A stretch of DNA of 64,000 bases, taken from NCBI GenBank assembly GCA_963796275.1, contig CAWCKY010000006.1:2784001-2848000 (forward strand), written 5' to 3'. Shown in pieces: positions 37,455 to 49,777 of the stretch; the stretch's first letter is position 1, and each line of letters starts with the position of its first letter. The translations under genes were made by a program, and so were the position numbers. Source of the stretch: an uncultured Acidobacteriota bacterium. GTDB taxonomy: Bacteria > Acidobacteriota > Blastocatellia > RBC074. The notes beneath the pieces were generated by a model, which ran no database searches, was not told the origin of the DNA, and saw nothing but the letters and a program-made list of their open reading frames with translations.

Positions 37455-38716
37455 GTCAATTACCCGCCACTAAGCTCGAAGACTCACAATAGTGGGGGCT
37501 TGCGATTCGACTCTTAGAGTCGTCCGCGATTGGCTGATTGACGGCAGCCCTGCTCCGAATGTTGAGAGCAGCGTTGATGTCGGCGTTACGGCAGTGACCG
37601 CATTGCCGACATTTGAAAACTTTTTGAGATTGCCGGTTAACTTTAGAGATATGGCCACAACTGGAACATTCACGAGAAGTGCTACGCGGGTTCACGGTAA
37701 GCACTGGCACGCGCGCGAGCTTGGCCTTGTACTCAATAAAGCAGCGCAATTGACCGAACGACCAGGAATGCAATTCAGAACGTTTAGCCTTGCGAGCCCG
37801 AACCCTCGAACGAATGCCTTTCAAGTCTTCCAATGCAATCGCTCGATTCGTGCGTTTGGCTTTGTCTACGATCTGTTTGCTGATTTGGTGATTGATGTCT
37901 TTGGCAAAGAGCGACTCTTTTCTGCGTCTCTCACGCAATCGTCTCTTTGCGCTTTTGGTTTTCTTCGCTTGCAGCCGTCGCCGAAGCTTCAAATGTCGCT
38001 TTCTCAGATTTTTAGTGTGGCTACCGGAAAACGATTTACCATCCGAATCGGCGGCGATCCGGGCAATCCCGAGATCAATGCCGAGATAGTCATCCGGGTT
38101 ATACGGCGACTCTTCGACTACATTGACCGTCGCAAACAAGTACCATCGGCCTTTACGGTAGACCAGATCAGATTCACCTTGGCGGGATGCGAGCAGAATC
38201 TTTTCTCGCTCTCCACCAACAAACGGAATCTTCTGTCTGCCTGTGACAGTCCAGATAGAAACGTAGTTTTCGCCGTAACGAAGAATTCGATCATCGAAAG
38301 CAATCGAACCGTGCTGGTGGAAGGTTCGTTGGCGTTCGTGGTCGGGCTTATACGCATCAGCCACTTTAGCGATTACTCGAACGGCAACCTGAGCGGAAAT
38401 ATCGAATTGTTCACGCAGAGCAGAGTAAGCGAGTTTATGGAGGTGAAATTGGCCGAAGGTCTTATGCTCCCACGCTATGCGCGAGCACTCACAAGCAGCT
38501 GCATTGGCTCGCTCAAGCGTCTCTTTCAATGCGGCAGCTTGCTCTTTGGTCGGATTCAGTTTCAATCCTATCGTCAATTTCATGGAACGAATAATACCAC
38601 ACTGCATTCTATACTTGAAGAGATTTTCCGTGCTAAGTCGCGCGGTCTCAAAATTCCTCTCCATCCAAGCTCGCCCAGATGCTCGTCTATGGATGGAGTA
38701 TCCTTTTGAGGTTTAG
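37455..38716 (-). mobile_element. Non-autonomous IS200/IS605-family (IS1341-like) element carrying tnpB only
   Basis: Left-end hairpin CTCCATCC...GGATGGAG after TTCAT. Right-end CAAGCCCCCAC...GTGGCGGGTAATTGAC. No tnpA. Ends are inferred. Confidence 0.75.
37456..38583 (-). CDS. tnpB: TnpB RNA-guided endonuclease
   Basis: RuvC motifs GIDLG, ALEDL and NADINAA. Zinc finger CSSC/CRQC. Confidence 0.92.
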   Translation of the reverse strand: MKLTIGLKLNPTKEQAAALKETLERANAAACECSRIAWEHKTFGQFHLHKLAYSALREQFDISAQVAVRVIAKVADAYKPDHERQRTFHQHGSIAFDDRILRYGENYVSIWTVTGRQKIPFVGGEREKILLASRQGESDLVYRKGRWYLFATVNVVEESPYNPDDYLGIDLGIARIAADSDGKSFSGSHTKNLRKRHLKLRRRLQAKKTKSAKRRLRERRRKESLFAKDINHQISKQIVDKAKRTNRAIALEDLKGIRSRVRARKAKRSELHSWSFGQLRCFIEYKAKLARVPVLTVNPRSTSRECSSCGHISKVNRQSQKVFKCRQCGHCRNADINAALNIRSRAAVNQPIADDSKSRIASPHYCESSSLVAGN

Positions 38717-38869
38717 ATGAATAATCGCCTGTCACCGGTCTCCACTCCGTAAGATGAGATATCGCCTGAATCTTGAATCCATCCGTCGAATACCGCAAGA
38801 CCAGACCGGTAGATCTGAAAAAGTCGCCCGGTATTGAGCGATCATTTGAGTCTAATTAGAGGTGCCGGA

Positions 38870-39100
38870 TCAGTATCCCTTCTCACAAAAGTGAGCCAGA
38901 ACGCTTATCGAAAGAGTCGCCGAAACGAGCCGCGAACGATTTCCCTCTTTCGGTGAAGAGCTGGCATTGATTAACTTTTTGCGATAAGCCCGGGCCGCGC
39001 GGAAATGCCCATCTGCGAGCCGTGCTGATCGTAGCAGCAGACACTGGGTTACGCGAGAACGAGATGTTCACTCTGGAAAAGAGTGATATCGATTTCAGGT
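38870..39100 (+). pseudogene. Decayed tyrosine integrase fragment related to 61025-62344
   Basis: PFSQK*ARTLIERVAETSRERFPSFGEELAL and AHLRAVLIVAADTGLRENEMFTL..DIDF. Confidence 0.8.
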
Positions 39101-39247
39101 CGGGGGGCACATTACGTGCGAATGTCGCTAACTGGCGGAGAAAGACGGTCTGTCTTTATTGCGGCTGACAAAATATTACTCGTCACCATTTATATGGCTA
39201 AGGGGGTACACCAGTCTCAATCTGAAGTGAGATTTCTTCCGCCATTC

Positions 39248-39277
39248 TGGACTTACAAAAGGCGAGGCGTTTACAAT
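39248..39277 (+). promoter_or_regulatory. Possible sigma70 promoter, leaderless to ATG 39285
   Basis: TGGACT-N18-TACAAT, ending 7 nt before the ATG. Confidence 0.35.
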
Positions 39278-39284
39278 CACGGCG

Positions 39285-39725
39285 ATGCGGATTAATTGGC
39301 CGGCGACAAAAAGAATGGTTCGACTTCATTTCGCCGTCTTCATCTTGTTGTGGTGGGGCGGACTGAATTGTCTTTCCGGCTGCCTGATTCCGAAGATAGG
39401 CGCTGACGGCGAAAGCCATTGTTCGATGGGCGGCGAGGGCGGAGATTGTTGTCATATCCAGGCCGGCGGCGAAGAATCGCTTTCATCAAAATCAATCAGA
39501 GCGCCTTCCACTTCAATACAATCTTTATCATGCTGTTCTCTCCTATCGCTTTCAGGGGATGTAAGTCGTGACGTGCGAGCCGTTGACGGCGCGCCTACTT
39601 CGGCGATATTGAGTCGAGCAGGATTCATTCCTGAAAGCGGGCCTCGCGTCCAATTTCCTGACCGTTGGGTGCGCCTCCCTGATCGCGGAGGAACTCACCT
39701 CCTTCACTGTGTCTTCCTGATTTAG
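39285..39725 (+). CDS. Cys/His-rich membrane-anchored hypothetical protein (metal-operon leader type)
   Basis: Hydrophobic N-terminus, CLSGC, HC...DCCH, SCC, C-terminal THLLHCVFLI. Confidence 0.65.
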   Translation: MRINWPATKRMVRLHFAVFILLWWGGLNCLSGCLIPKIGADGESHCSMGGEGGDCCHIQAGGEESLSSKSIRAPSTSIQSLSCCSLLSLSGDVSRDVRAVDGAPTSAILSRAGFIPESGPRVQFPDRWVRLPDRGGTHLLHCVFLI

Positions 39726-39812
39726 AAAAAAAGTTTGCACGCGGAATTCTTATCAGCGCCAGTATGCTCACTGGTCTATGGGCAAACTTTATCTAAAATA
39801 GGAGATACAACA

Positions 39813-39992
39813 ATGAAATCCGTTAAAACATTCGTCATCGCTTTAGTCCTCGGGTTGGGCGTCGTTGTGTACGCGGCCGATGGTTCACAGGCCTCAACGC
39901 GGTCTTGCTGTCTGACTGGGGCTGACTGCTGTGTCGCCGGCGCAAGTTGCTGCACGTGCAGATTGTGCTGCGCGACTCACGAAGCCAAGTGA
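39813..39992 (+). CDS. Small secreted Cys-rich (metallothionein-like) protein
   Basis: AGGAG RBS, signal peptide, SCCLTGADCCVAGASCCTCRLCC. Confidence 0.75.
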   Translation: MKSVKTFVIALVLGLGVVVYAADGSQASTRSCCLTGADCCVAGASCCTCRLCCATHEAK

Positions 39993-40010
39993 GCTAATCG
40001 TTAATCAAGA

Positions 40011-40043
40011 GGGGCGGGGGCGGACATCGTCCGCGCCCGCTCC
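40011..40043 (+). other. Strong intergenic GC hairpin
   Basis: GGGGCGGGGGCGGAC-ATC-GTCCGCGCCCGCTCC, with no U-tract. Confidence 0.5.
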
Positions 40044-40079
40044 GCGTTCAACGCACAATCAATCCAAGGAGAATTCGCA

Positions 40080-41507
40080 ATGAAACTACTCGCCACCGCG
40101 ACGCTTGGCGCCGTCTTCTTATCGCTCGTAAACTTGGGCATCGGTCTTGCCCAGGTAAAGCGTGTGGAGATGAAGATCGACGGTTACCTCTGCGGCAACT
40201 GAGTGTTCAACATCCAGAAGGCCGTGAGCCGTCTAAACTTCGCACCGAAACTCAATGAGATCGAAATCACTGACATCAAAAACGGTATCGGCGTGTTCAC
40301 GCCGAAGGCCGAGAAATCCGTCTCCTATGTGGCGCTCAAGAAGACATTGAAAAAGGCCGGTTATACGCTCGCTTCCGCGAAAATTACCGTGAACGGAAAA
40401 CTCGCGCGTGACGCCTCAGGATGGGCGCTACTGTCTGACACATCTGGTCAGCGCTTTGCTTTGGATGGAGAGGGCGTTGAACTGGCTCTACCGGACGCCG
40501 CCCCGAACGCGCAAGTAGAAGTCACTGGCGATTGGAAGTCGGCAGGGGAAGGGAAGGAAGTCATCTCTCGTTTGCCCGCAAAGAAGGCCGGGCGATCTCA
40601 CAATGAAAATGGAGATAATCCTGTCCAAACAGAATACGTCGATGTAACCTGCGGCGGTCCCATGGAAGCGGGACCGTTGCCGGTTGCTCCCATAAGGACG
40701 ACGAGCCCGGGGCTGACGGTTTATCGCGGCGGCGCGTTCACGCCGCGTTACATTTTTGTGCGGCAACAACTAGGAGGGCTGAAAGTTGATCGTAATATTA
40801 TGCTCTTGGACTTCTCCTACACTCCGACGCCGAAGCTTCTGGTAGAGGCTGAAATCCCGTTCACGTGGATTTCATTCAAAGAAGGGGCGACATCCGGTAG
40901 TGACGAGGGTATAGGTAACATCATCATTTCGGGCAAGTATCGCTTCTTTCGGCAGGTCGAGGCGTGGGGGGACCGCCAGGCAGCGCTGCGCTTCGGCTTG
41001 GAGCTTCCGACCGGGAAGGATGACGCTCCGAGCGAACAACAACTCCATGCGCCGGCATTTATACGCCAGCAGCTTTCGCCGATCAGCGGCGGCCTCTCTG
41101 CACACATTGACCTGACTTACTCGCAAGCAAAAGGCCGGTTCATTTTCGGGGGCAACGTCGAAGGCGTTCTACGCTCCGAGCGAGATGGGTTCCGGATGGG
41201 GAACGAACTTCGCATCAATACTGACCTTGAATACGTGCTCTTCCCGCGGAAGTATGACCGTCCGGGTGGGGAAGTGTTCGCCATCCTGGAATCAAACTTC
41301 ATCCGCCGCGGAACCGGGCGCGTCGCCGGCGCGCCCGTGCCCGGGAGTCGCTCTACCGAGTATTACCTTGCGCCGGGAGTCCAATACGCGATGCGTCCGA
41401 GGTTCGTCATCGAAGCTAGCTATCAAATTCCGGTGGCGCGTAACGCCGGGTCTCAAGCTCTCCGCGTCGAGCGGGGCTTACTTGTTGGCGTCAGAATACT
41501 GTACTGA
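40080..41507 (+). CDS. Candidate selenoprotein: signal peptide, HMA domain with CxxU, and outer-membrane transporter-like beta-barrel
   Basis: AAGGAG RBS, then ATG 40080 MKLLATATLGAVFLSLVNLGIGLA-QVKRVEMKIDGYLCGN-TGA(40200)-VFNIQKAVSRL, in frame with ORF 40203. SECIS-like hairpin follows. The C-terminal part has GIGNIIISGKYRF, GLELPTG and ends in Y. Confidence 0.8.
40203..40245 (+). promoter_or_regulatory. Putative bacterial SECIS element
   Basis: AGAAGGC-CGTGA-GCCGTCT hairpin. The loop starts 20 nt after TGA with G at loop position 2, and the outer GTG/CAC can pair. Confidence 0.55.
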
Positions 41508-41516
41508 GGTGGACCG

Positions 41517-41996
41517 ATGACAGGAACGGCAATTACCGCAATGCTCCTGGTTGTGTTCTCTGCGCTCGTCCTGGGACAGGGCGAAAAGCCTGCTCCTAAA
41601 TTGAAGCTCAGGGATGTTGAGGGGCGCGCTCTGCGTCTGAGTGATTACAAGGGCAGAGTCGTGCTCCTCAACTTCTGGGCGACGTGGTGTGCGCCGTGCC
41701 GGGTCGAGATGCCTGACCTGGTGAAGTGGCAGCGGGAGTACAAAGGCAAGGGCCTTCAGGTTATCGGCGTCACGTACCCGCCGGAAGAATTAGCCGAGGT
41801 GCGTGAATTCATCAAAAGTATCAGAGTCAACTATCCCGTTGCTCTGGGCGAGGAACAGACGAAGGCAATGTTTGATGAAGGGGACATTCTTCCTGTCACC
41901 GTGGTGATTGATAAAAAGGGGATGATTCGTGAAGTCATCCACGGAATCATTTTCCCGGAAGAGTTTGAACATAAGGTGAAGCCGTTGCTTCGTTAG
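41517..41996 (+). CDS. TlpA/ResA-family thiol:disulfide oxidoreductase, exported
   Basis: LLNFWATWCAPCRVEMP, LP.T.VID. Confidence 0.92.
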   Translation: MTGTAITAMLLVVFSALVLGQGEKPAPKLKLRDVEGRALRLSDYKGRVVLLNFWATWCAPCRVEMPDLVKWQREYKGKGLQVIGVTYPPEELAEVREFIKSIRVNYPVALGEEQTKAMFDEGDILPVTVVIDKKGMIREVIHGIIFPEEFEHKVKPLLR

Positions 41997-42417
41997 ACGT
42001 CTTGCTGTTCGCCATGTTCGCAATCTCATGAGAGGGTGAGGAAGAGGGCGCGATATACCGCGAGCAAGCGCGGCATATCGCAATATTAGTCCAGATTTCG
42101 CCACCAAATATTTTTAACCAGAGATTCATCAACGGTATAAAAACGATTTTCTTGATTAGCCTGAATAGTTTATCTCAGAAATCGACGACAGAGATCACGT
42201 TTGGTCAGAGAATTGCCTCATACAACGGGGGTAATTTCTCGTCTTTTATCCATTCTCAAAACAGTGCGGCAATAGGATTCTGGCGGTGATGGTTTGATCG
42301 GATGCGCCTCTCAGTTCAGAAACTGCTTTGTAGACCTGATTGTCGCTTCCAACATTAGCATCTACGAGGCCTGGGCGCCCTAACCAGATTGTATGATTTG
42401 AAACCGGGGGTTTGACA

Positions 42418-45400
42418 ATGAAGATGGCCTGTTTCCTTTTACTCATTGCGTTTTCAACAATAAGTTTTGCGCAAAGCAACTATGTAACGATTGTCGGAAC
42501 CGTCTACGACCCGCAGAGCCGGTCTCTCCCGGGCGCGAATGTACAGATCACCTCGGCCGGCACACAGGCAATCCGTAAAGTTGTCAGTAATGAATTGGGA
42601 ATATACCGGATCACTGGTCTTCTGCCGGGTGAATATGAACTCGAGGTTACAGTCACGGGCTTTGCTTCCGTAAAGCAATCCTTGCGTCTTGAGGTCGGCC
42701 AACAGTTGACGCTCGACATTAATCTTAAGTTGGCCTCCGTTACTACCACTATTGAAGTCGGTGCGGCCGACGTTTTACGCACTACAGATTCCAGCGTCGG
42801 CGAGGTCATTGAGCCGGCCGCCATTCGTAATTTACCGCTCAACGGGCGCATGCTGATCGATCTCGTACTAACTGTGCCGGGGGCGCATCTCAGTCACGGC
42901 GCGCAGGCCGGTGATATGAATCCCTTGTATTGGCGGCCCGGACAACGTTCGTCGGTCAGTATCGGTGGAAATCGACCGAACGCGAACTACTTCCTCCTAG
43001 ACGGGGCGACCAATACCGATCCGACATTCAATACTCTGAACCTGAGCCCCTCGCCGGACGCCGTACTGGAGTTCAAGGTCCAGACCGGCAGTTATTCCGC
43101 TGAGATGGGCGGCGCCGGCGGCGGACAGATAAATATCGTTACCCGCTCGGGCTCGAACCAATTTCACGGTACTGTCTACGAATTCCTCCGCAACAGCGCG
43201 TTCGACGCCCGATCCTTCAACGAGATGGAATCAGGTAATCATCTCGTCCAAAACAATTTCGGAGCCTCGCTAGGCGGCCCCATCGTGTCCAATAAGGCTT
43301 TCTTCTTTCTTAACTATGAGGGACTGCGGCGGACGAATGCGATGACGATGGCGCAGACCGTGCCGACGGAGATGGAGGTGATGGGCGATTTCAGCATGAG
43401 CGGAACGATGATCTACAACCCGTTCAGCTCTCGGCCGAACCCGAACTTCGATTCTTCCAGGCCGATCGGTCCCACGAATTCACAGATCATCCGCGATCCG
43501 TTCCCGGATAATATGATCCCGGAAAATCTGCTCAATCCCGTAGCCGCGAAATTTCTGCAAAAGTATATGGTGCGCCCGAATATGGGGATGGACATGGGGA
43601 TGATGATGATGGGCGGGTGTGGGATGACGATGATGGGAGCTCCGACGGTTGTTGGAGGCGGCGTAGATTGCAACAACTATCTCGATGTGCGCAATGCGCG
43701 GCATGTCACGGACCAGGGTACGGCCCGCTTCGATTACAACTTAACCGGCGGAGACAGCCTGGCAGCGCGTTATTCATTGAGTAAAGAACGTGGATCTATT
43801 CCGCAAAACCTGCCAGGGTTCGGCGCATTCCACGATAACTTTTCGCAGCACGGGAGCGTCTCCTGGAACCATATCTTCAGCCCTACCGTGGTGAATACGG
43901 CATCGATCACGGTTTCCCGCCTTGCCATGCACCGGTCTTCCGAAAACAGTGAGTCGAACGACATCATCTCTGATTTGGGGATACAGGGTGTTGGCTTCGG
44001 TGGTAAGGGGGCTTTCGGCGCTCCCTGGTTCAATGTGCAGGGCTATTCGGGCATGGGCGACACATTCGCGGCCACGCCGATGCGCGCCTGGGATACGATT
44101 CTTGAACTCCGCGACCACCTGAGCTGGCAGCGCGGGCGGCACAGTCTTAAATTCGGTGGAAGCTATCGGCACTTCATATGGCCGATGTGGGGCTTCTTCC
44201 AGAACCGCGGCTATTATCAATTTACAAACGGATTCACGACTCAAACGGCGACCAACGACGGAACGGGCTCTGCTCTGGCCAGTTTTCTGTTAGGGCTGCC
44301 TGCAGTGAAGCAACGCCAGGCCGGGATCCCCCAGATGCAGCTCCGTCAATGGTATGCAGACGGTTTCGCCCAGGATACTGTTCAACTCACCCGCACGACG
44401 ACGGTCGTGGTCGGACTCCGCTATGAATACATGAACCCTTTGCGGGATCTGAAATACACGAACACCAATCTCACCTTTGAAAACGGAACGCCGTCGGTTT
44501 TCATCGGCGGCCAGCAAGGATTTCCCGAGGGGTTGATGTATGCGAAGCGGAGCAACTTCGCCCCTCGGATCGGGATCTCACAAAACATCCCTCGCTATGG
44601 CATCGTGATCCACACTGCCTACGGCATTTTCTATACGCCGGTGGATATGAACACATGGTGCAACCAGCGCCATAACGTGCCATTTGTGTTTCCGGAGACT
44701 CAGCAGAGCGACAATTTTATCCCGGCGATAAACGGGTTTGATTTCGCGCCGGCCGCGCTCGGCAGGACCACGGTCAGCTTCGCGGCTTTCGATCCGCATG
44801 CACCTTCGCAGTACATCCAGCAATGGAGCCTTTCGGTGTCCAAGAGTCTGGGGCGTGAAACCACGCTCGAGGTCGGATACCTGGGAGCGCGTGGATTGCA
44901 TCTGCAACGATCGCACTTGATTAACAATGCGCCGCCTGGCCCTGGAGCGCTTGGGCCACGCCGTCCGTTCAGGACGCTCAGTTTCCTGCCGGGAATGGAG
45001 CTGCCGTCGGACATCACGGTCATCAGTACTACATTTCCCGTGAGCGGGATAAATTTGCTTGAGAATACTGCGAGAAGCTGGTACGACGCGGGTTATGCGA
45101 ATATCAGGCGACGGTTCTCTAAAGGGATGAGCCTTCTGGCTAATTACACCTGGTCGAAGAGTCTGACGGATGCGCCCGACTTCCGCTCGCCGATGTTCGA
45201 ATCTGCCATTCCGCAGGACAACAACAACCTGTACGCTGAGAAGGGACTCGGCTGTGACATCCGCCACCGCTTTTCGCTGAGCGCTGTCTTCGATCTTCCA
45301 GGGGTAGGGAAATCGGGCAGCTTGTCGGCAATCACAAAGGGCTGGCTTCTCTCCACCATCTATCAGGTTCAGAGTGGATTCCCGTTCACCGTCTCCGTCT

Positions 45401-45792
45401 TTGGCGACACGGCGAACGCCGGAACGCTGCTCGGCGAAAATCCCATTCGGGCCAATTATACGGGACAACCGATCTTCGACGAGGGCTCGCGCACCGCGGA
45501 CCGCTGGCTCAATCCGGCTGCCTTTGCCGTCCCTCCGGCTTTTGCGTTCGGAAATGTTGGACGGAATACGGTCGTCGGACCCGGAATGCAGACGCTCGAT
45601 CTGGCCATGACGCGAGAGTTCAACATCACGGAAAAAACAAAGTTCCAGTTCCGGGCGGAGTTTTTCAACGCACTCAATCATACTAACCTGGGGACGCCTG
45701 GCCGGTTCGTGAACACGCCGCAATTCGGTGTCATCACTGAAGCCGCGACTCCCGGCCGCCAGATTCAATTCGGCGCCCGTATATCGTTTTAG
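42418..45792 (+). CDS. Acidobacterial Oar-like TonB-dependent receptor with a Met-rich insert
   Basis: Carboxypeptidase-regulatory domain, LPLNGR, EFKVQT..YSAE.G, NFAPRIG, RQIQFGARISF. Confidence 0.9.
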   Translation: MKMACFLLLIAFSTISFAQSNYVTIVGTVYDPQSRSLPGANVQITSAGTQAIRKVVSNELGIYRITGLLPGEYELEVTVTGFASVKQSLRLEVGQQLTLDINLKLASVTTTIEVGAADVLRTTDSSVGEVIEPAAIRNLPLNGRMLIDLVLTVPGAHLSHGAQAGDMNPLYWRPGQRSSVSIGGNRPNANYFLLDGATNTDPTFNTLNLSPSPDAVLEFKVQTGSYSAEMGGAGGGQINIVTRSGSNQFHGTVYEFLRNSAFDARSFNEMESGNHLVQNNFGASLGGPIVSNKAFFFLNYEGLRRTNAMTMAQTVPTEMEVMGDFSMSGTMIYNPFSSRPNPNFDSSRPIGPTNSQIIRDPFPDNMIPENLLNPVAAKFLQKYMVRPNMGMDMGMMMMGGCGMTMMGAPTVVGGGVDCNNYLDVRNARHVTDQGTARFDYNLTGGDSLAARYSLSKERGSIPQNLPGFGAFHDNFSQHGSVSWNHIFSPTVVNTASITVSRLAMHRSSENSESNDIISDLGIQGVGFGGKGAFGAPWFNVQGYSGMGDTFAATPMRAWDTILELRDHLSWQRGRHSLKFGGSYRHFIWPMWGFFQNRGYYQFTNGFTTQTATNDGTGSALASFLLGLPAVKQRQAGIPQMQLRQWYADGFAQDTVQLTRTTTVVVGLRYEYMNPLRDLKYTNTNLTFENGTPSVFIGGQQGFPEGLMYAKRSNFAPRIGISQNIPRYGIVIHTAYGIFYTPVDMNTWCNQRHNVPFVFPETQQSDNFIPAINGFDFAPAALGRTTVSFAAFDPHAPSQYIQQWSLSVSKSLGRETTLEVGYLGARGLHLQRSHLINNAPPGPGALGPRRPFRTLSFLPGMELPSDITVISTTFPVSGINLLENTARSWYDAGYANIRRRFSKGMSLLANYTWSKSLTDAPDFRSPMFESAIPQDNNNLYAEKGLGCDIRHRFSLSAVFDLPGVGKSGSLSAITKGWLLSTIYQVQSGFPFTVSVFGDTANAGTLLGENPIRANYTGQPIFDEGSRTADRWLNPAAFAVPPAFAFGNVGRNTVVGPGMQTLDLAMTREFNITEKTKFQFRAEFFNALNHTNLGTPGRFVNTPQFGVITEAATPGRQIQFGARISF

Positions 45793-48781: not shown

Positions 48782-49777
48782 TTGGAATATTATTTCAGCG
48801 AGATGAAGCTTCCTTCGATCACGGTCGGCGAGATCAAGAAGTTCGCGATCTGGCTGTCTAAGATTCCCGCTCGCAGCATTATTGTTGAAGATGATAATGC
48901 AAAATTGGTTCTGAATATCAAGGAGAACGGCGGCCAGAGGAGTATTGAGTCCATCAATCGAGCGGTTGAACTATTGAGAACAGTGCTCAATTATGCGGTC
49001 GAGGAGAAGATACTCCGAGAGGAACAGAATCCTTTCTCGAAGAAGAAGGCGAGATCATTAATCGACAGACGTGCCGAGTCAAAGCGCGAGCAATTGCCGA
49101 CCTTCGGCGAAGAGATGGCGTTGCTCAAGGTTTGTACTGGAGATCGCGCTCATCTACGAGCAGTCCTCATTATCGCTGCTGATTCCGGTTTGAGAAGGAA
49201 TGAACTCTTTACTCTTTCATGGAAAGAGAAGGACATCGACTTTGAAAATCGGCTGATCAGACTCAGAGCTATCAACGCGAAATGGAATAAAGCAAGAACG
49301 ATCCCGATGACGCAGCGTGCTTACGAAGAACTGTTGAAACTCAAAGAGCAGTATGGCGATCATCCATCGGGCCTTGTGTTTGGGGGGATTAAAGAAGTGA
49401 AAAGATCATTCAATACAGCCTGTCGCTTGACGGGGATTGAAGACCTCCACAAACACGACCTCCGGCACGCATTCGTCACGCGCTCAATCCTGGCAGGCAT
49501 ACCACCGGCTATGGCTTTGAAGGCCAGCGGCCATAGTTCGGATGAATGGAAGCGATATCTCAATGTGACACCGGATATGCTTCATGATTTGTTTACGCCT
49601 CTGGAAGGCCAGGAAAGCGAGGTTGTCAAAGCTTATGGATTTGAAGTGATGCGCCAGTTGACAGAGGCGCTAATGGGATATTGGAAGACAGGGGGAAACG
49701 GCGCATTTTTCCAAGAACTGCGTGCCAGAGTTGAAATGCCAACTGGATCAGGTCAACGCCAGGCGCAAATGCCATAA
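48782..49777 (+). pseudogene. 5'-truncated tyrosine integrase
   Basis: SGLRRNE, HDLRH, GH, RY. Lacks the N-terminal ~108 aa of the 61025 copy. Confidence 0.85.

Follow-up and report, generated by a model that had tools for sequence, protein, structure and literature searches.

A very probable selenoprotein of Acidobacteriota that combines an exported CxxU HMA-type domain with an outer-membrane channel

In the bacterial selenocysteine insertion sequence (SECIS) consensus, a hairpin lies shortly 3' of the UGA and carries a G (and a U) in its apical loop. Solved outer-membrane barrels of the COG4313/FapF type contain an N-terminal plug segment inside the barrel, and the periplasmic extension of FapF is a coiled coil. 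Selenocysteine (Sec, U) has already been listed, in the consulted passages of reviews from 2022 and 2026, for a UxxU "putative mercuric reductase", a UxxC cation ATPase, MerT and the barrel family GSU2204 (PMC13188914, PMC9312934, 10.1101/2022.07.06.499078). Here, we have analysed a stretch of 64,000 nucleotides (nt), called the window below, from an uncultured Acidobacteriota bacterium of the class Blastocatellia (assembly GCA_963796275.1, contig CAWCKY010000006.1), and describe the gene at positions 40080-41507 on its forward strand. We conclude that it is very probably a real selenoprotein gene, whose product would be an exported CxxU metal-binding domain fused to an outer-membrane channel.

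In the open reading frames (ORFs) of translation table 11 this gene appears as two pieces, one of 40 amino acids starting with ATG (40080-40202) and one of 434 amino acids starting with GTG (40203-41507). The two are in the same frame, and a TGA at 40200-40202 is the sole separator. An earlier note on this DNA, made from the letters alone, had pointed out that the ORF track begins at 40203 although an ATG at 40080 with an AAGGAG ribosome-binding site opens the frame, and that the TGA stands where the second Cys of an HMA motif belongs, with the expected helix behind it. Both ORFs and the ribosome-binding site were located in the sequence as it said. When the TGA is read as U, the frame gives a protein of 475 amino acids with a hydrophobic, signal-like N-terminus, followed by ...VEMKIDGYLCGN-U-VFNIQKAVSRL...LKKAGY, in which the helix is found. 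TGA is an ordinary stop in the source genome, where it terminates 6 of the 12 genes checked, this gene among them. Taken as one claim, and judged from sequence and structural models, the gene structure, the decoding of the TGA as Sec and the domain architecture can be held with high confidence.

The first line of this evidence is the conservation of the TGA. An orthologue search over 61 related genomes gave 9 with a match, the window's own genome (G000) counted. The matches in six of these genomes (G012, G014, G016, G018, G024 and G037) are full-length or cut by a contig end, are 50-70% identical and contain exactly one internal TGA. When 401 genomes were sampled evenly over the phylum, 38 had a match; two of these, G250 and G430, contain the fused form, again with the TGA. 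In these eight orthologues, all at 50-70% identity, the TGA column is identical, and on both sides of it the amino acids are conserved with synonymous codon changes.

The same picture was obtained from a pattern scan of one genome per species in 185,579 species. The pattern, G-Y-L-C-G-x-[TGN]-V-F/Y-N-I-Q/K-K-A, was degenerate and left the codon free at TGN. It was found in at least 119 species-level genomes; it needs conserved flanks, so that divergent Cys forms could escape it. Of the 119 matches listed, 118 have TGA and one has TGT as the free codon, and TGC and TGG are absent; the lone TGT copy is without signal peptide and barrel and is a decayed remnant. The frame after the TGA is open for 413-590 codons in 88 of the matches listed, runs off the stored locus in 21 and has an early stop in 10, and an in-frame ATG with an open frame lies 30-60 codons upstream in 109 of the 119. 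In nearly all cases their titles name Acidobacteriota, with Pyrinomonadaceae and Blastocatellia among these, and the source is soil or sediment. The earlier note had proposed to look for homologues that keep the TGA at this column with conservation on both sides, and this is what the 118 matches and the eight orthologues read through the TGA present. Since the TGA is so conserved over independent assemblies, a sequencing error is excluded. Reads add little to this point: for Logan contigs from four soil or sediment runs, at 80% likeness, none of the differences listed falls at 40200-40202 or in 40216-40234, but these contigs come from relatives and carry little weight; in a word search, the share of sampled words found in any of the 24 sequencing runs listed was at most 0.13, and no RNA run was among them.

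That standard annotation would truncate such a gene was also anticipated, and it does so in public records. In a search space of 5.8 billion clustered proteins, none of the best 120 matches examined covers more than 91% of the 475-residue query; most of them, at 424-467 amino acids, have their start immediately 3' of the TGA. Their record names are "hypothetical protein", "transporter", "Putative MetA-pathway of phenol degradation" or "outer membrane putative beta-barrel porin". With residues 1-41 alone as the query, no protein of 261-833 amino acids that carries these residues was returned. These records agree with the idea that the TGA is a true stop, so that an upstream ORF of 40 codons is followed by a separate 434-residue gene from GTG 40203. 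Gene callers give this arrangement, the best 120 matches are all without the N-terminal part, and the hairpin that follows the TGA is weak. However, by the translation and the AlphaFold2 (AF2) model, the 434-residue product would have its first residue within helix 1 of the HMA domain, and this outer-membrane barrel would have no signal peptide. Moreover, the 40 codons upstream keep their amino acids while changing at synonymous sites, the parts upstream and downstream of the TGA together make up a complete HMA fold in a model of high confidence, unfused relatives have Cys at the TGA column, and in 118 of the 119 matches listed the codon is TGA and never TAA or TAG. We regard a true stop as very improbable.

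The hairpin is the second element that would be expected for Sec decoding. It pairs 40216-40218 with 40232-40234 and 40220-40222 with 40228-40230, with an A.G mismatch in between. The distance from the TGA to the loop is exactly 20 nt and loop position 2 is G, as the earlier note had described. RNAalifold on 10 orthologues yields the hairpin 40216-40234 as the consensus structure. How strongly its sequence is kept can be seen from the codons. Among 127 columns of the eight orthologues with a conserved residue and a degenerate codon, 9 are codon-invariant, 7 of these 9 lie at residues 39-51, and five consecutive invariant codons, 47-51 (AAG GCC GTG AGC CGT), fall exactly over the hairpin. The 12 nt that the search pattern left free, which are the loop and the 3' arm, are identical in 103 of the 119 matches listed. 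In 8 of the 119 the loop changes from CGUGA to AGUUA by a double synonymous change, and the loop G-U is kept in all 119. The core hairpin motif occurs twice in the 9.46-Mb genome, in this gene and in a partial paralogue described below. The evidential weight of the hairpin thus comes from conservation and not from folding energy. A scan of 38700-42500 against Rfam (E<=1) gave no match. On the sequence evidence, the 19-nt block is a candidate SECIS of the fused family, for which the structural proof is incomplete.

The genome has the machinery to make use of such an element. The genes for Sec that the earlier note had named were all found: profile searches gave selA with 457 bits, the SelB-specific wing domain with 75 bits in a frame of 657 amino acids and selD with 359 bits, and one tRNA with anticodon UCA was assigned to the type SeC by ARAGORN. 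The N-terminal motif of the selD gene (contig C7:302299-303228) contains an in-frame TGA, which makes SelD a selenoprotein too, and a strong hairpin follows this TGA (-21.2 kcal/mol when 70 nt from the TGA are folded). SelA is also present in all eight of the other genomes with the fused gene. Recoding tRNAs, such as a tRNA-Sec-like Cys tRNA, are reported in some bacteria, and UGA could in principle be read as cysteine or another standard residue here. As selA and a Sec-type selD are present, Sec-tRNA can be made, and the one UCA-anticodon tRNA was typed SeC by ARAGORN, the only means by which a second such tRNA was sought. A standard residue at this codon is hardly to be expected. The decoding we propose is that UGA 40200-40202 would be read as Sec by SelB and tRNA-Sec, guided by the hairpin 40216-40234.

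The predicted protein joins an HMA fold and an outer-membrane barrel, together with a small beta domain, in a new combination. We obtained an AF2 model of the whole protein from a 39-row alignment, with a mean predicted local distance difference test score (pLDDT) of 77 and with the HMA domain at residues 26-96 and the barrel at 217-474, and a separate model of residues 25-165, with a pLDDT of 93.9. With Foldseek, the HMA part matches MerP, CopZ and ZiaA at target-normalised template modelling (TM) scores of 0.73-0.85. In the VIA fold lists, which cover residues 1-81 of the 25-165 model, it reaches Z 10.1 to Ccc2a (1fvq) with a root-mean-square deviation (rmsd) of 1.8 over 72 residues, and 28 chains have Z>=8. 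The structural matches include Ccc2a, ATP7B, ZntA, CopZ, MerP and GolB, at an rmsd of ~2 A over ~70 residues. In the AF2 model, Cys38 is at the end of the beta1-alpha1 loop, helix 1 begins one residue after it, and Sec41 is in the first turn of the helix. The barrel matches PF13557 (Phenol_MetA_deg) over residues 232-453 with 40.5 bits against a cut-off of 22, and its top Foldseek matches are 5o65, FapF (E 4.4e-11, TM 0.78), and 4rl8, a COG4313 channel (E 2.5e-10, TM 0.77), both target-normalised and at probability 1.00. At the end of the linker, just before the barrel, is an invariant P-I-R-T-x-S-P-G-L-T-V-Y, with invariant columns P204, I205 and P210-Y215. This stretch, residues 204-215, precedes strand 1 and could be the plug of the barrel; the model places it without confidence. 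Thus, both the HMA fold and the transporter-like barrel of the earlier note were borne out, the former with a Pfam score slightly under its cut-off, and so was its proposal of an exported Sec-containing, predicted metal-binding domain tethered to such a barrel, for which the Sec, HMA-fold and barrel evidence speak together. The features are collected in Table 1.

Table 1. Predicted features of the fused gene and its immediate surroundings, in positions of the window
Feature	Position	Strand	Remarks
orf146, 146 amino acids, one hydrophobic N-terminal helix and conserved Cys motifs	39285..39725	+	Conserved upstream partner
Secreted-looking peptide of 59 amino acids with paired cysteines	39813..39992	+	Three CC pairs kept over three copies; accessory, outside the conserved core
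Stable GC-rich 14-bp hairpin between peptide and selenoprotein genes	40011..40043	+	No T-run
Ribosome-binding site AAGGAG	40066..40071	+	8 nt 5' of ATG 40080; read from the sequence
Complete selenoprotein gene (very probable)	40080..41507	+	475 codons including one Sec codon, then terminal TGA stop
Signal peptide, residues 1-24	40080..40151	+	Likely cleavage after GLA; n-h-c pattern judged by eye; hydrophobic helix at residues 2-17 in AF2
HMA domain, beta-alpha-beta-beta-alpha-beta, residues 25-96	40152..40367	+	PF00403, AF2 and structure matches
Putative metal-binding motif C38-G-N-U41	40191..40202	+	Sec codon TGA 40200-40202; first turn of helix 1
Candidate SECIS, 3+3 bp hairpin	40216..40234	+	Begins 13 nt 3' of the TGA; loop CGUGA at 40223-40227
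Small beta domain, residues 97-163	40368..40568	+	AF2 strands; common to unfused HMA proteins of ~170-190 amino acids (aligns with their C-terminal half)
Low-confidence, length-variable linker, residues 165-212	40572..40715	+	pLDDT <50; length differs between orthologues
12-strand outer-membrane beta-barrel, residues 217-475	40728..41504	+	Phenol_MetA_deg / COG4313 / FapF type
TlpA/ResA-like exported thiol:disulfide oxidoreductase, WCAPC motif	41517..41996	+	Starts 10 nt past the stop; conserved downstream partner

What stands at the Sec position in related proteins can be seen from unfused homologues. Exported HMA proteins, of ~170-190 amino acids and encoded beside barrel genes, are found in the same phylum with CxxC in 9 genomes, UxxC in 1 and UxxU in 10. 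In an alignment of 22 fused and unfused homologues, the sole invariant columns are a Gly and the two Cys/Sec positions, and Cys at the aligned column is found in the CxxC relatives, which are unfused and 17-28% identical. The ten UxxU loci have two TGAs each and the UxxC locus has one. The UxxU and UxxC proteins are exported, consist of an HMA and a beta domain, are usually encoded beside a Phenol_MetA_deg barrel gene and were found in other families of the phylum, in at least 11 genomes. Their TGAs are followed by two hairpins, which are conserved and stronger (consensus -13.9 kcal/mol), and 4 of the 11 pairs show compensatory changes. The best-scoring models for the relatives are CopZ, MerP and UxxU metal-binding. 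The scores are 32-48 bits on NF041115 (cut-off 95) for the UxxU relatives, which are below every NCBIfam cut-off, and 19-38 bits on the MerP model TIGR02052 (cut-off 92.55) for the unfused relatives. The motif of the fused form is G-Y-L-C-G-N-U, as against a G-M-T-type motif in the unfused relatives. With the TGA conserved, Cys or Sec at its column in homologues, the hairpin invariant and the sel machinery present, the view of the earlier note, that Sec stands where an HMA CxxC has its second Cys, agrees with all four lines of evidence. As no intact Cys form has been found, the fused form appears to depend on Sec.

The neighbouring genes give a first idea of the partners of the fused gene. The TlpA-like protein matches AhpC-TSA (3e-24) and Redoxin (2.9e-22), with NCBIfam ResA and TlpA matches under their cut-offs, and its gene lies directly 3' in every fused locus with enough flank (L010-L013, L015/L020, L019, L021, L025 and L026). 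On the other side, orf146 was found by tblastn 5' of the HMA gene in six loci (L010-L014 and L018), wherever the flank was available. Its Cys motifs in the alignment are LWWGGLNCLxGC, DCC, SCC and a C-terminal CVFLI. It has no Pfam or NCBIfam match, and its nearest Atlas clusters are unnamed and come from Acidobacteriota. Genes with a metal theme are found near the fused gene in two genomes: in G014 a MerR regulator is directly 5', and another MerR, a MerT-HMA fusion and a zf_CopZ protein are in the vicinity, and in G430 there is a P-type ATPase with HMBD and YHS domains. A TonB-dependent-like receptor at 42412-45792 was considered as a partner and rejected, as it is not conserved beside the fused gene in other genomes.

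Upstream of the fused gene, the region 39990-40079 folds at -35.2 kcal/mol (z -3.34), with none of 200 shuffles as good. The hairpin within it, 40011-40043, may be an attenuator or a stabiliser. A scan for promoters and terminators gave 3 promoter-like sites where 2.5 were expected and is uninformative; one of the sites, 39248-39277, is just 5' of orf146.

Based on these observations, we propose how the protein could work. The product would consist of a signal peptide, a periplasmic HMA domain with the pair Cys38-Sec41, a small beta domain, a flexible linker of ~50 residues and a 12-strand FapF/COG4313-type channel. In the periplasm, the tethered Cys/Sec domain would bind a metal ion of the soft, thiophilic kind. 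Cu(I) is the most likely, because the relatives score best on CopZ-type models and a copper-type ATPase is encoded near the fused gene in G430; Hg(II), Ag(I) and Cd(II) are alternatives. The HMA domain would then hand the metal to its own channel or take it from the channel, so that the metal could cross the outer membrane in either direction. The adjacent TlpA-like redoxin would keep the Cys-Sec pair, which can form a selenylsulfide, reduced in the oxidising periplasm, and the Cys-motif membrane protein encoded upstream, orf146, would be a further partner. We consider this proposal, with metal binding, exchange with the channel, reduction by the redoxin and the partnership of orf146 taken together, to be evenly balanced between right and wrong.

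It is conceivable that the Cys-Sec pair is instead a redox centre, and that the protein is an HMA-fold periplasmic selenol/thiol oxidoreductase, recycled by the TlpA-like partner and acting on a substrate of the channel. In redox selenoproteins, CxxU usually stands at the N-terminus of a helix. In the consulted passages of a 2026 review, most UxxC and CxxU families are thought to be redox-active (among PMC13188914, PMC9312934, 10.1101/2022.07.06.499078). The TlpA-like redoxin is the most constant neighbour, and G-Y-L-C-G-N-U departs from the motif of the unfused relatives. Yet the top structural matches are all metal-binding HMA domains, with no HMA-fold oxidoreductase among the matches. The models that best fit the relatives are, likewise, those of metal-binding proteins, and metal genes lie near the fused gene in G014 and G430. 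A redox centre seems to us unlikely.

The barrel itself could suggest another role. Its top structural match is FapF, which transports polypeptides, and the barrel could be a FapF-like secretion pore for the paired-Cys product of 39813-39992 or for some other unfolded peptide, with the Sec domain handling the cargo or its metal. The peptide looks secreted and is encoded just 5' on the same strand, and G430 has a different CC-rich small protein in the 5' position. On the other hand, the COG4313 small-molecule channel matches about equally well, and the peptide gene, for which no family was found, occurs solely in G000, in the truncated paralogue of G000 and in G012. It was not found in the intergenic regions of L010-L013 and so is outside the conserved core. 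Because the peptide gene is not conserved, we consider peptide export less likely than a redox role, and improbable altogether. The small protein of G430 is encoded at ~12.47-12.74 kb of its locus (L057, minus strand), upstream of the fused gene and on the same strand, and its repeated CC-rich units give it a metallothionein-like look.

Turning back to a Sec-containing, metal-binding domain on a channel, several points weigh against it. When the hairpin is judged as a SECIS, its spacing and loop are as in the consensus and its synonymous sites are fixed, but it folds at about -5 kcal/mol, shows no covariation and does not fold better than shuffles. By itself it has -4.8 kcal/mol, and the RNAalifold consensus of 10 orthologues has -4.95 kcal/mol and is without covariation, being invariable. 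Folded as single sequences, 40195-40270 and 40200-40245 are not more stable than shuffles (z +1.07 and z +0.11), one lower-stem pair is broken in 5 of the 119 matches listed, and the hairpin after the TGA of selD in the same genome is far stronger. SelA is found in 5 of 5 genomes of the same family without the fused gene; as carriers and non-carriers have it alike, it is a necessary condition and does not discriminate. G136, a genome that is 99% complete, has a UxxU HMA gene and the SelB wing domain, but no match to SelA (PF03841). An intact Cys orthologue of the fused form was not found by the word-based search with residues 1-41 or among the 119 matches listed in the pattern scan, so that the pairing of Sec with Cys is drawn from distant unfused relatives at 17-28% identity. 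The HMA match to PF00403 (E 1.3e-4; residues 32-96 on profile positions 3-62 of 62) has 22.7 bits, under the gathering cut-off of 24.8. The wider neighbours in G016, in G037 and in this window have no metal theme, and what points to a metal is the modelled fold and the gene neighbours only.

Some related copies and mobile genes deserve mention in their own right. The genome G000 has a partial paralogue on contig C1:90761-92511 (L018 / L058:6762-8512), with orf146, the Cys peptide and the HMA gene, at 87.7% nucleotide identity to 39241-40988. It has TAA for TGA at the Sec codon and ends mid-barrel, where unrelated unique sequence begins. It looks like a truncated pseudogene; the 19-nt hairpin block is still kept. 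Two other members of the family look degraded: L133 has an additional in-frame stop 29 codons 3' of the Sec codon, and L158 is without a signal peptide and has a disrupted 3' arm of the hairpin block. In the window, a TnpB/IS605 OrfB-like gene (with a Cas12f1-like TNB domain) lies at 37456-38664 on the minus strand, with 0.6 kb between it and the cluster downstream. A phage-type integrase is encoded at 48782-49777 on the plus strand, 7 kb downstream of the cluster. Together with the truncated paralogue, these two genes hint that the region was formerly mobile.

When the fused and unfused forms are considered together, a wider and more tentative reading arises. Acidobacteriota could have an unrecognised pathway that handles soft metals at the outer membrane, in which an exported HMA protein (CxxC, UxxC, CxxU or UxxU) works with a COG4313/FapF-type channel, and the fused gene could be its most derived member; we consider this less likely than not. 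In such a pathway the genes would have been fused in the Blastocatellia/Pyrinomonadaceae lineage, where the fused form appears to be Sec-dependent. If so, a selenolate on a flexible tether would be the selectivity or hand-over site of an outer-membrane channel, and the supply of selenium would condition metal handling in abundant soil bacteria. Recognising the gene would also correct public records, in which it is a signal-less "transporter" or "hypothetical protein" without its first 41 residues. It provides a concrete and testable case of Sec as a proposed metal ligand on an outer-membrane channel, and the relatives with CxxC, UxxC, CxxU and UxxU form a natural series for what Sec adds to a metal site.

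In NCBIfam at E<=0.01, the sole model touched by the 475-residue protein is NF041115, with 17.6 bits against a cut-off of 95 and with CxxU, not UxxU, as the motif; there is no MerP (TIGR02052) or CopZ match at this threshold. A selenoprotein with an HMA CxxU and an outer-membrane barrel was not found in NCBIfam or in the consulted review passages, a scope that stops short of the supplementary family tables of selenoproteome surveys. Likewise, in a term search limited to the literature passages returned, COG4313, FapF or MetA-pathway was not found in combination with selenoprotein terms, and neither a CxxU HMA family nor a selenoprotein of the PF13557 or FapF type is listed there. This is consistent, within NCBIfam and the review passages, with the statement of the earlier note that the architecture was not recognised as characterised.

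The closest systems each share one part with the fused protein. The UxxU metal-binding (seleno)proteins of NF041115 have an HMA-type domain with Sec for Cys of the metal-binding CxxC, but they have two Sec in a model that spans 74 positions, whereas the protein described here has one Sec at the second position, is predicted to be exported and is fused to a beta domain and a barrel. MerP and the CopZ/Atx1-type HMA metallochaperones (PF00403; 1osd, 6ff2, 1fvq) have the same fold and likewise place the ligand pair in the beta1-alpha1 loop and the first turn of the helix, and MerP is exported to the periplasm, as is predicted for the 475-residue protein. They differ in their usual G-M-x-C-x-x-C, in place of which we find G-Y-L-C-G-N-U with Sec as the second Cys, and in lacking the covalent tether to an outer-membrane channel. 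The FapF amyloid-secretion pore and the COG4313 channel of Pseudomonas putida F1 (PF13557; 5o65, 4rl8) share the 12-strand barrel and a periplasmic N-terminal extension joined by a linker; in contrast, sequence identity to them is 12-14%, the extension is here the HMA(Sec) and beta domains, and no plug helix is confidently modelled (residues 165-212, pLDDT <50). Other selenoproteins resemble it more distantly. As far as the consulted passages describe them, the MerT/CopZ fusion-like family NF045683, the UxxC P-type ATPase and the SO_0444 Cu/Zn efflux transporter have Sec at a presumed metal ligand and are associated with transport, but belong to inner-membrane or cytoplasmic contexts, have a different architecture and give no match at E<=0.01. 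On the same partial basis, the GSU2204 family (NF041027), again transport-associated and with Sec at a presumed metal ligand, is also an outer-membrane barrel selenoprotein, but its architecture is different and it too has no match at E<=0.01. In the light of these sources, as far as they were consulted, Sec as a ligand in an HMA motif is already known, and the position in the motif (CxxU) and the architecture are new. The fused gene would add a selenoprotein family in a phylum and a habitat that go unmentioned in the review passages searched.

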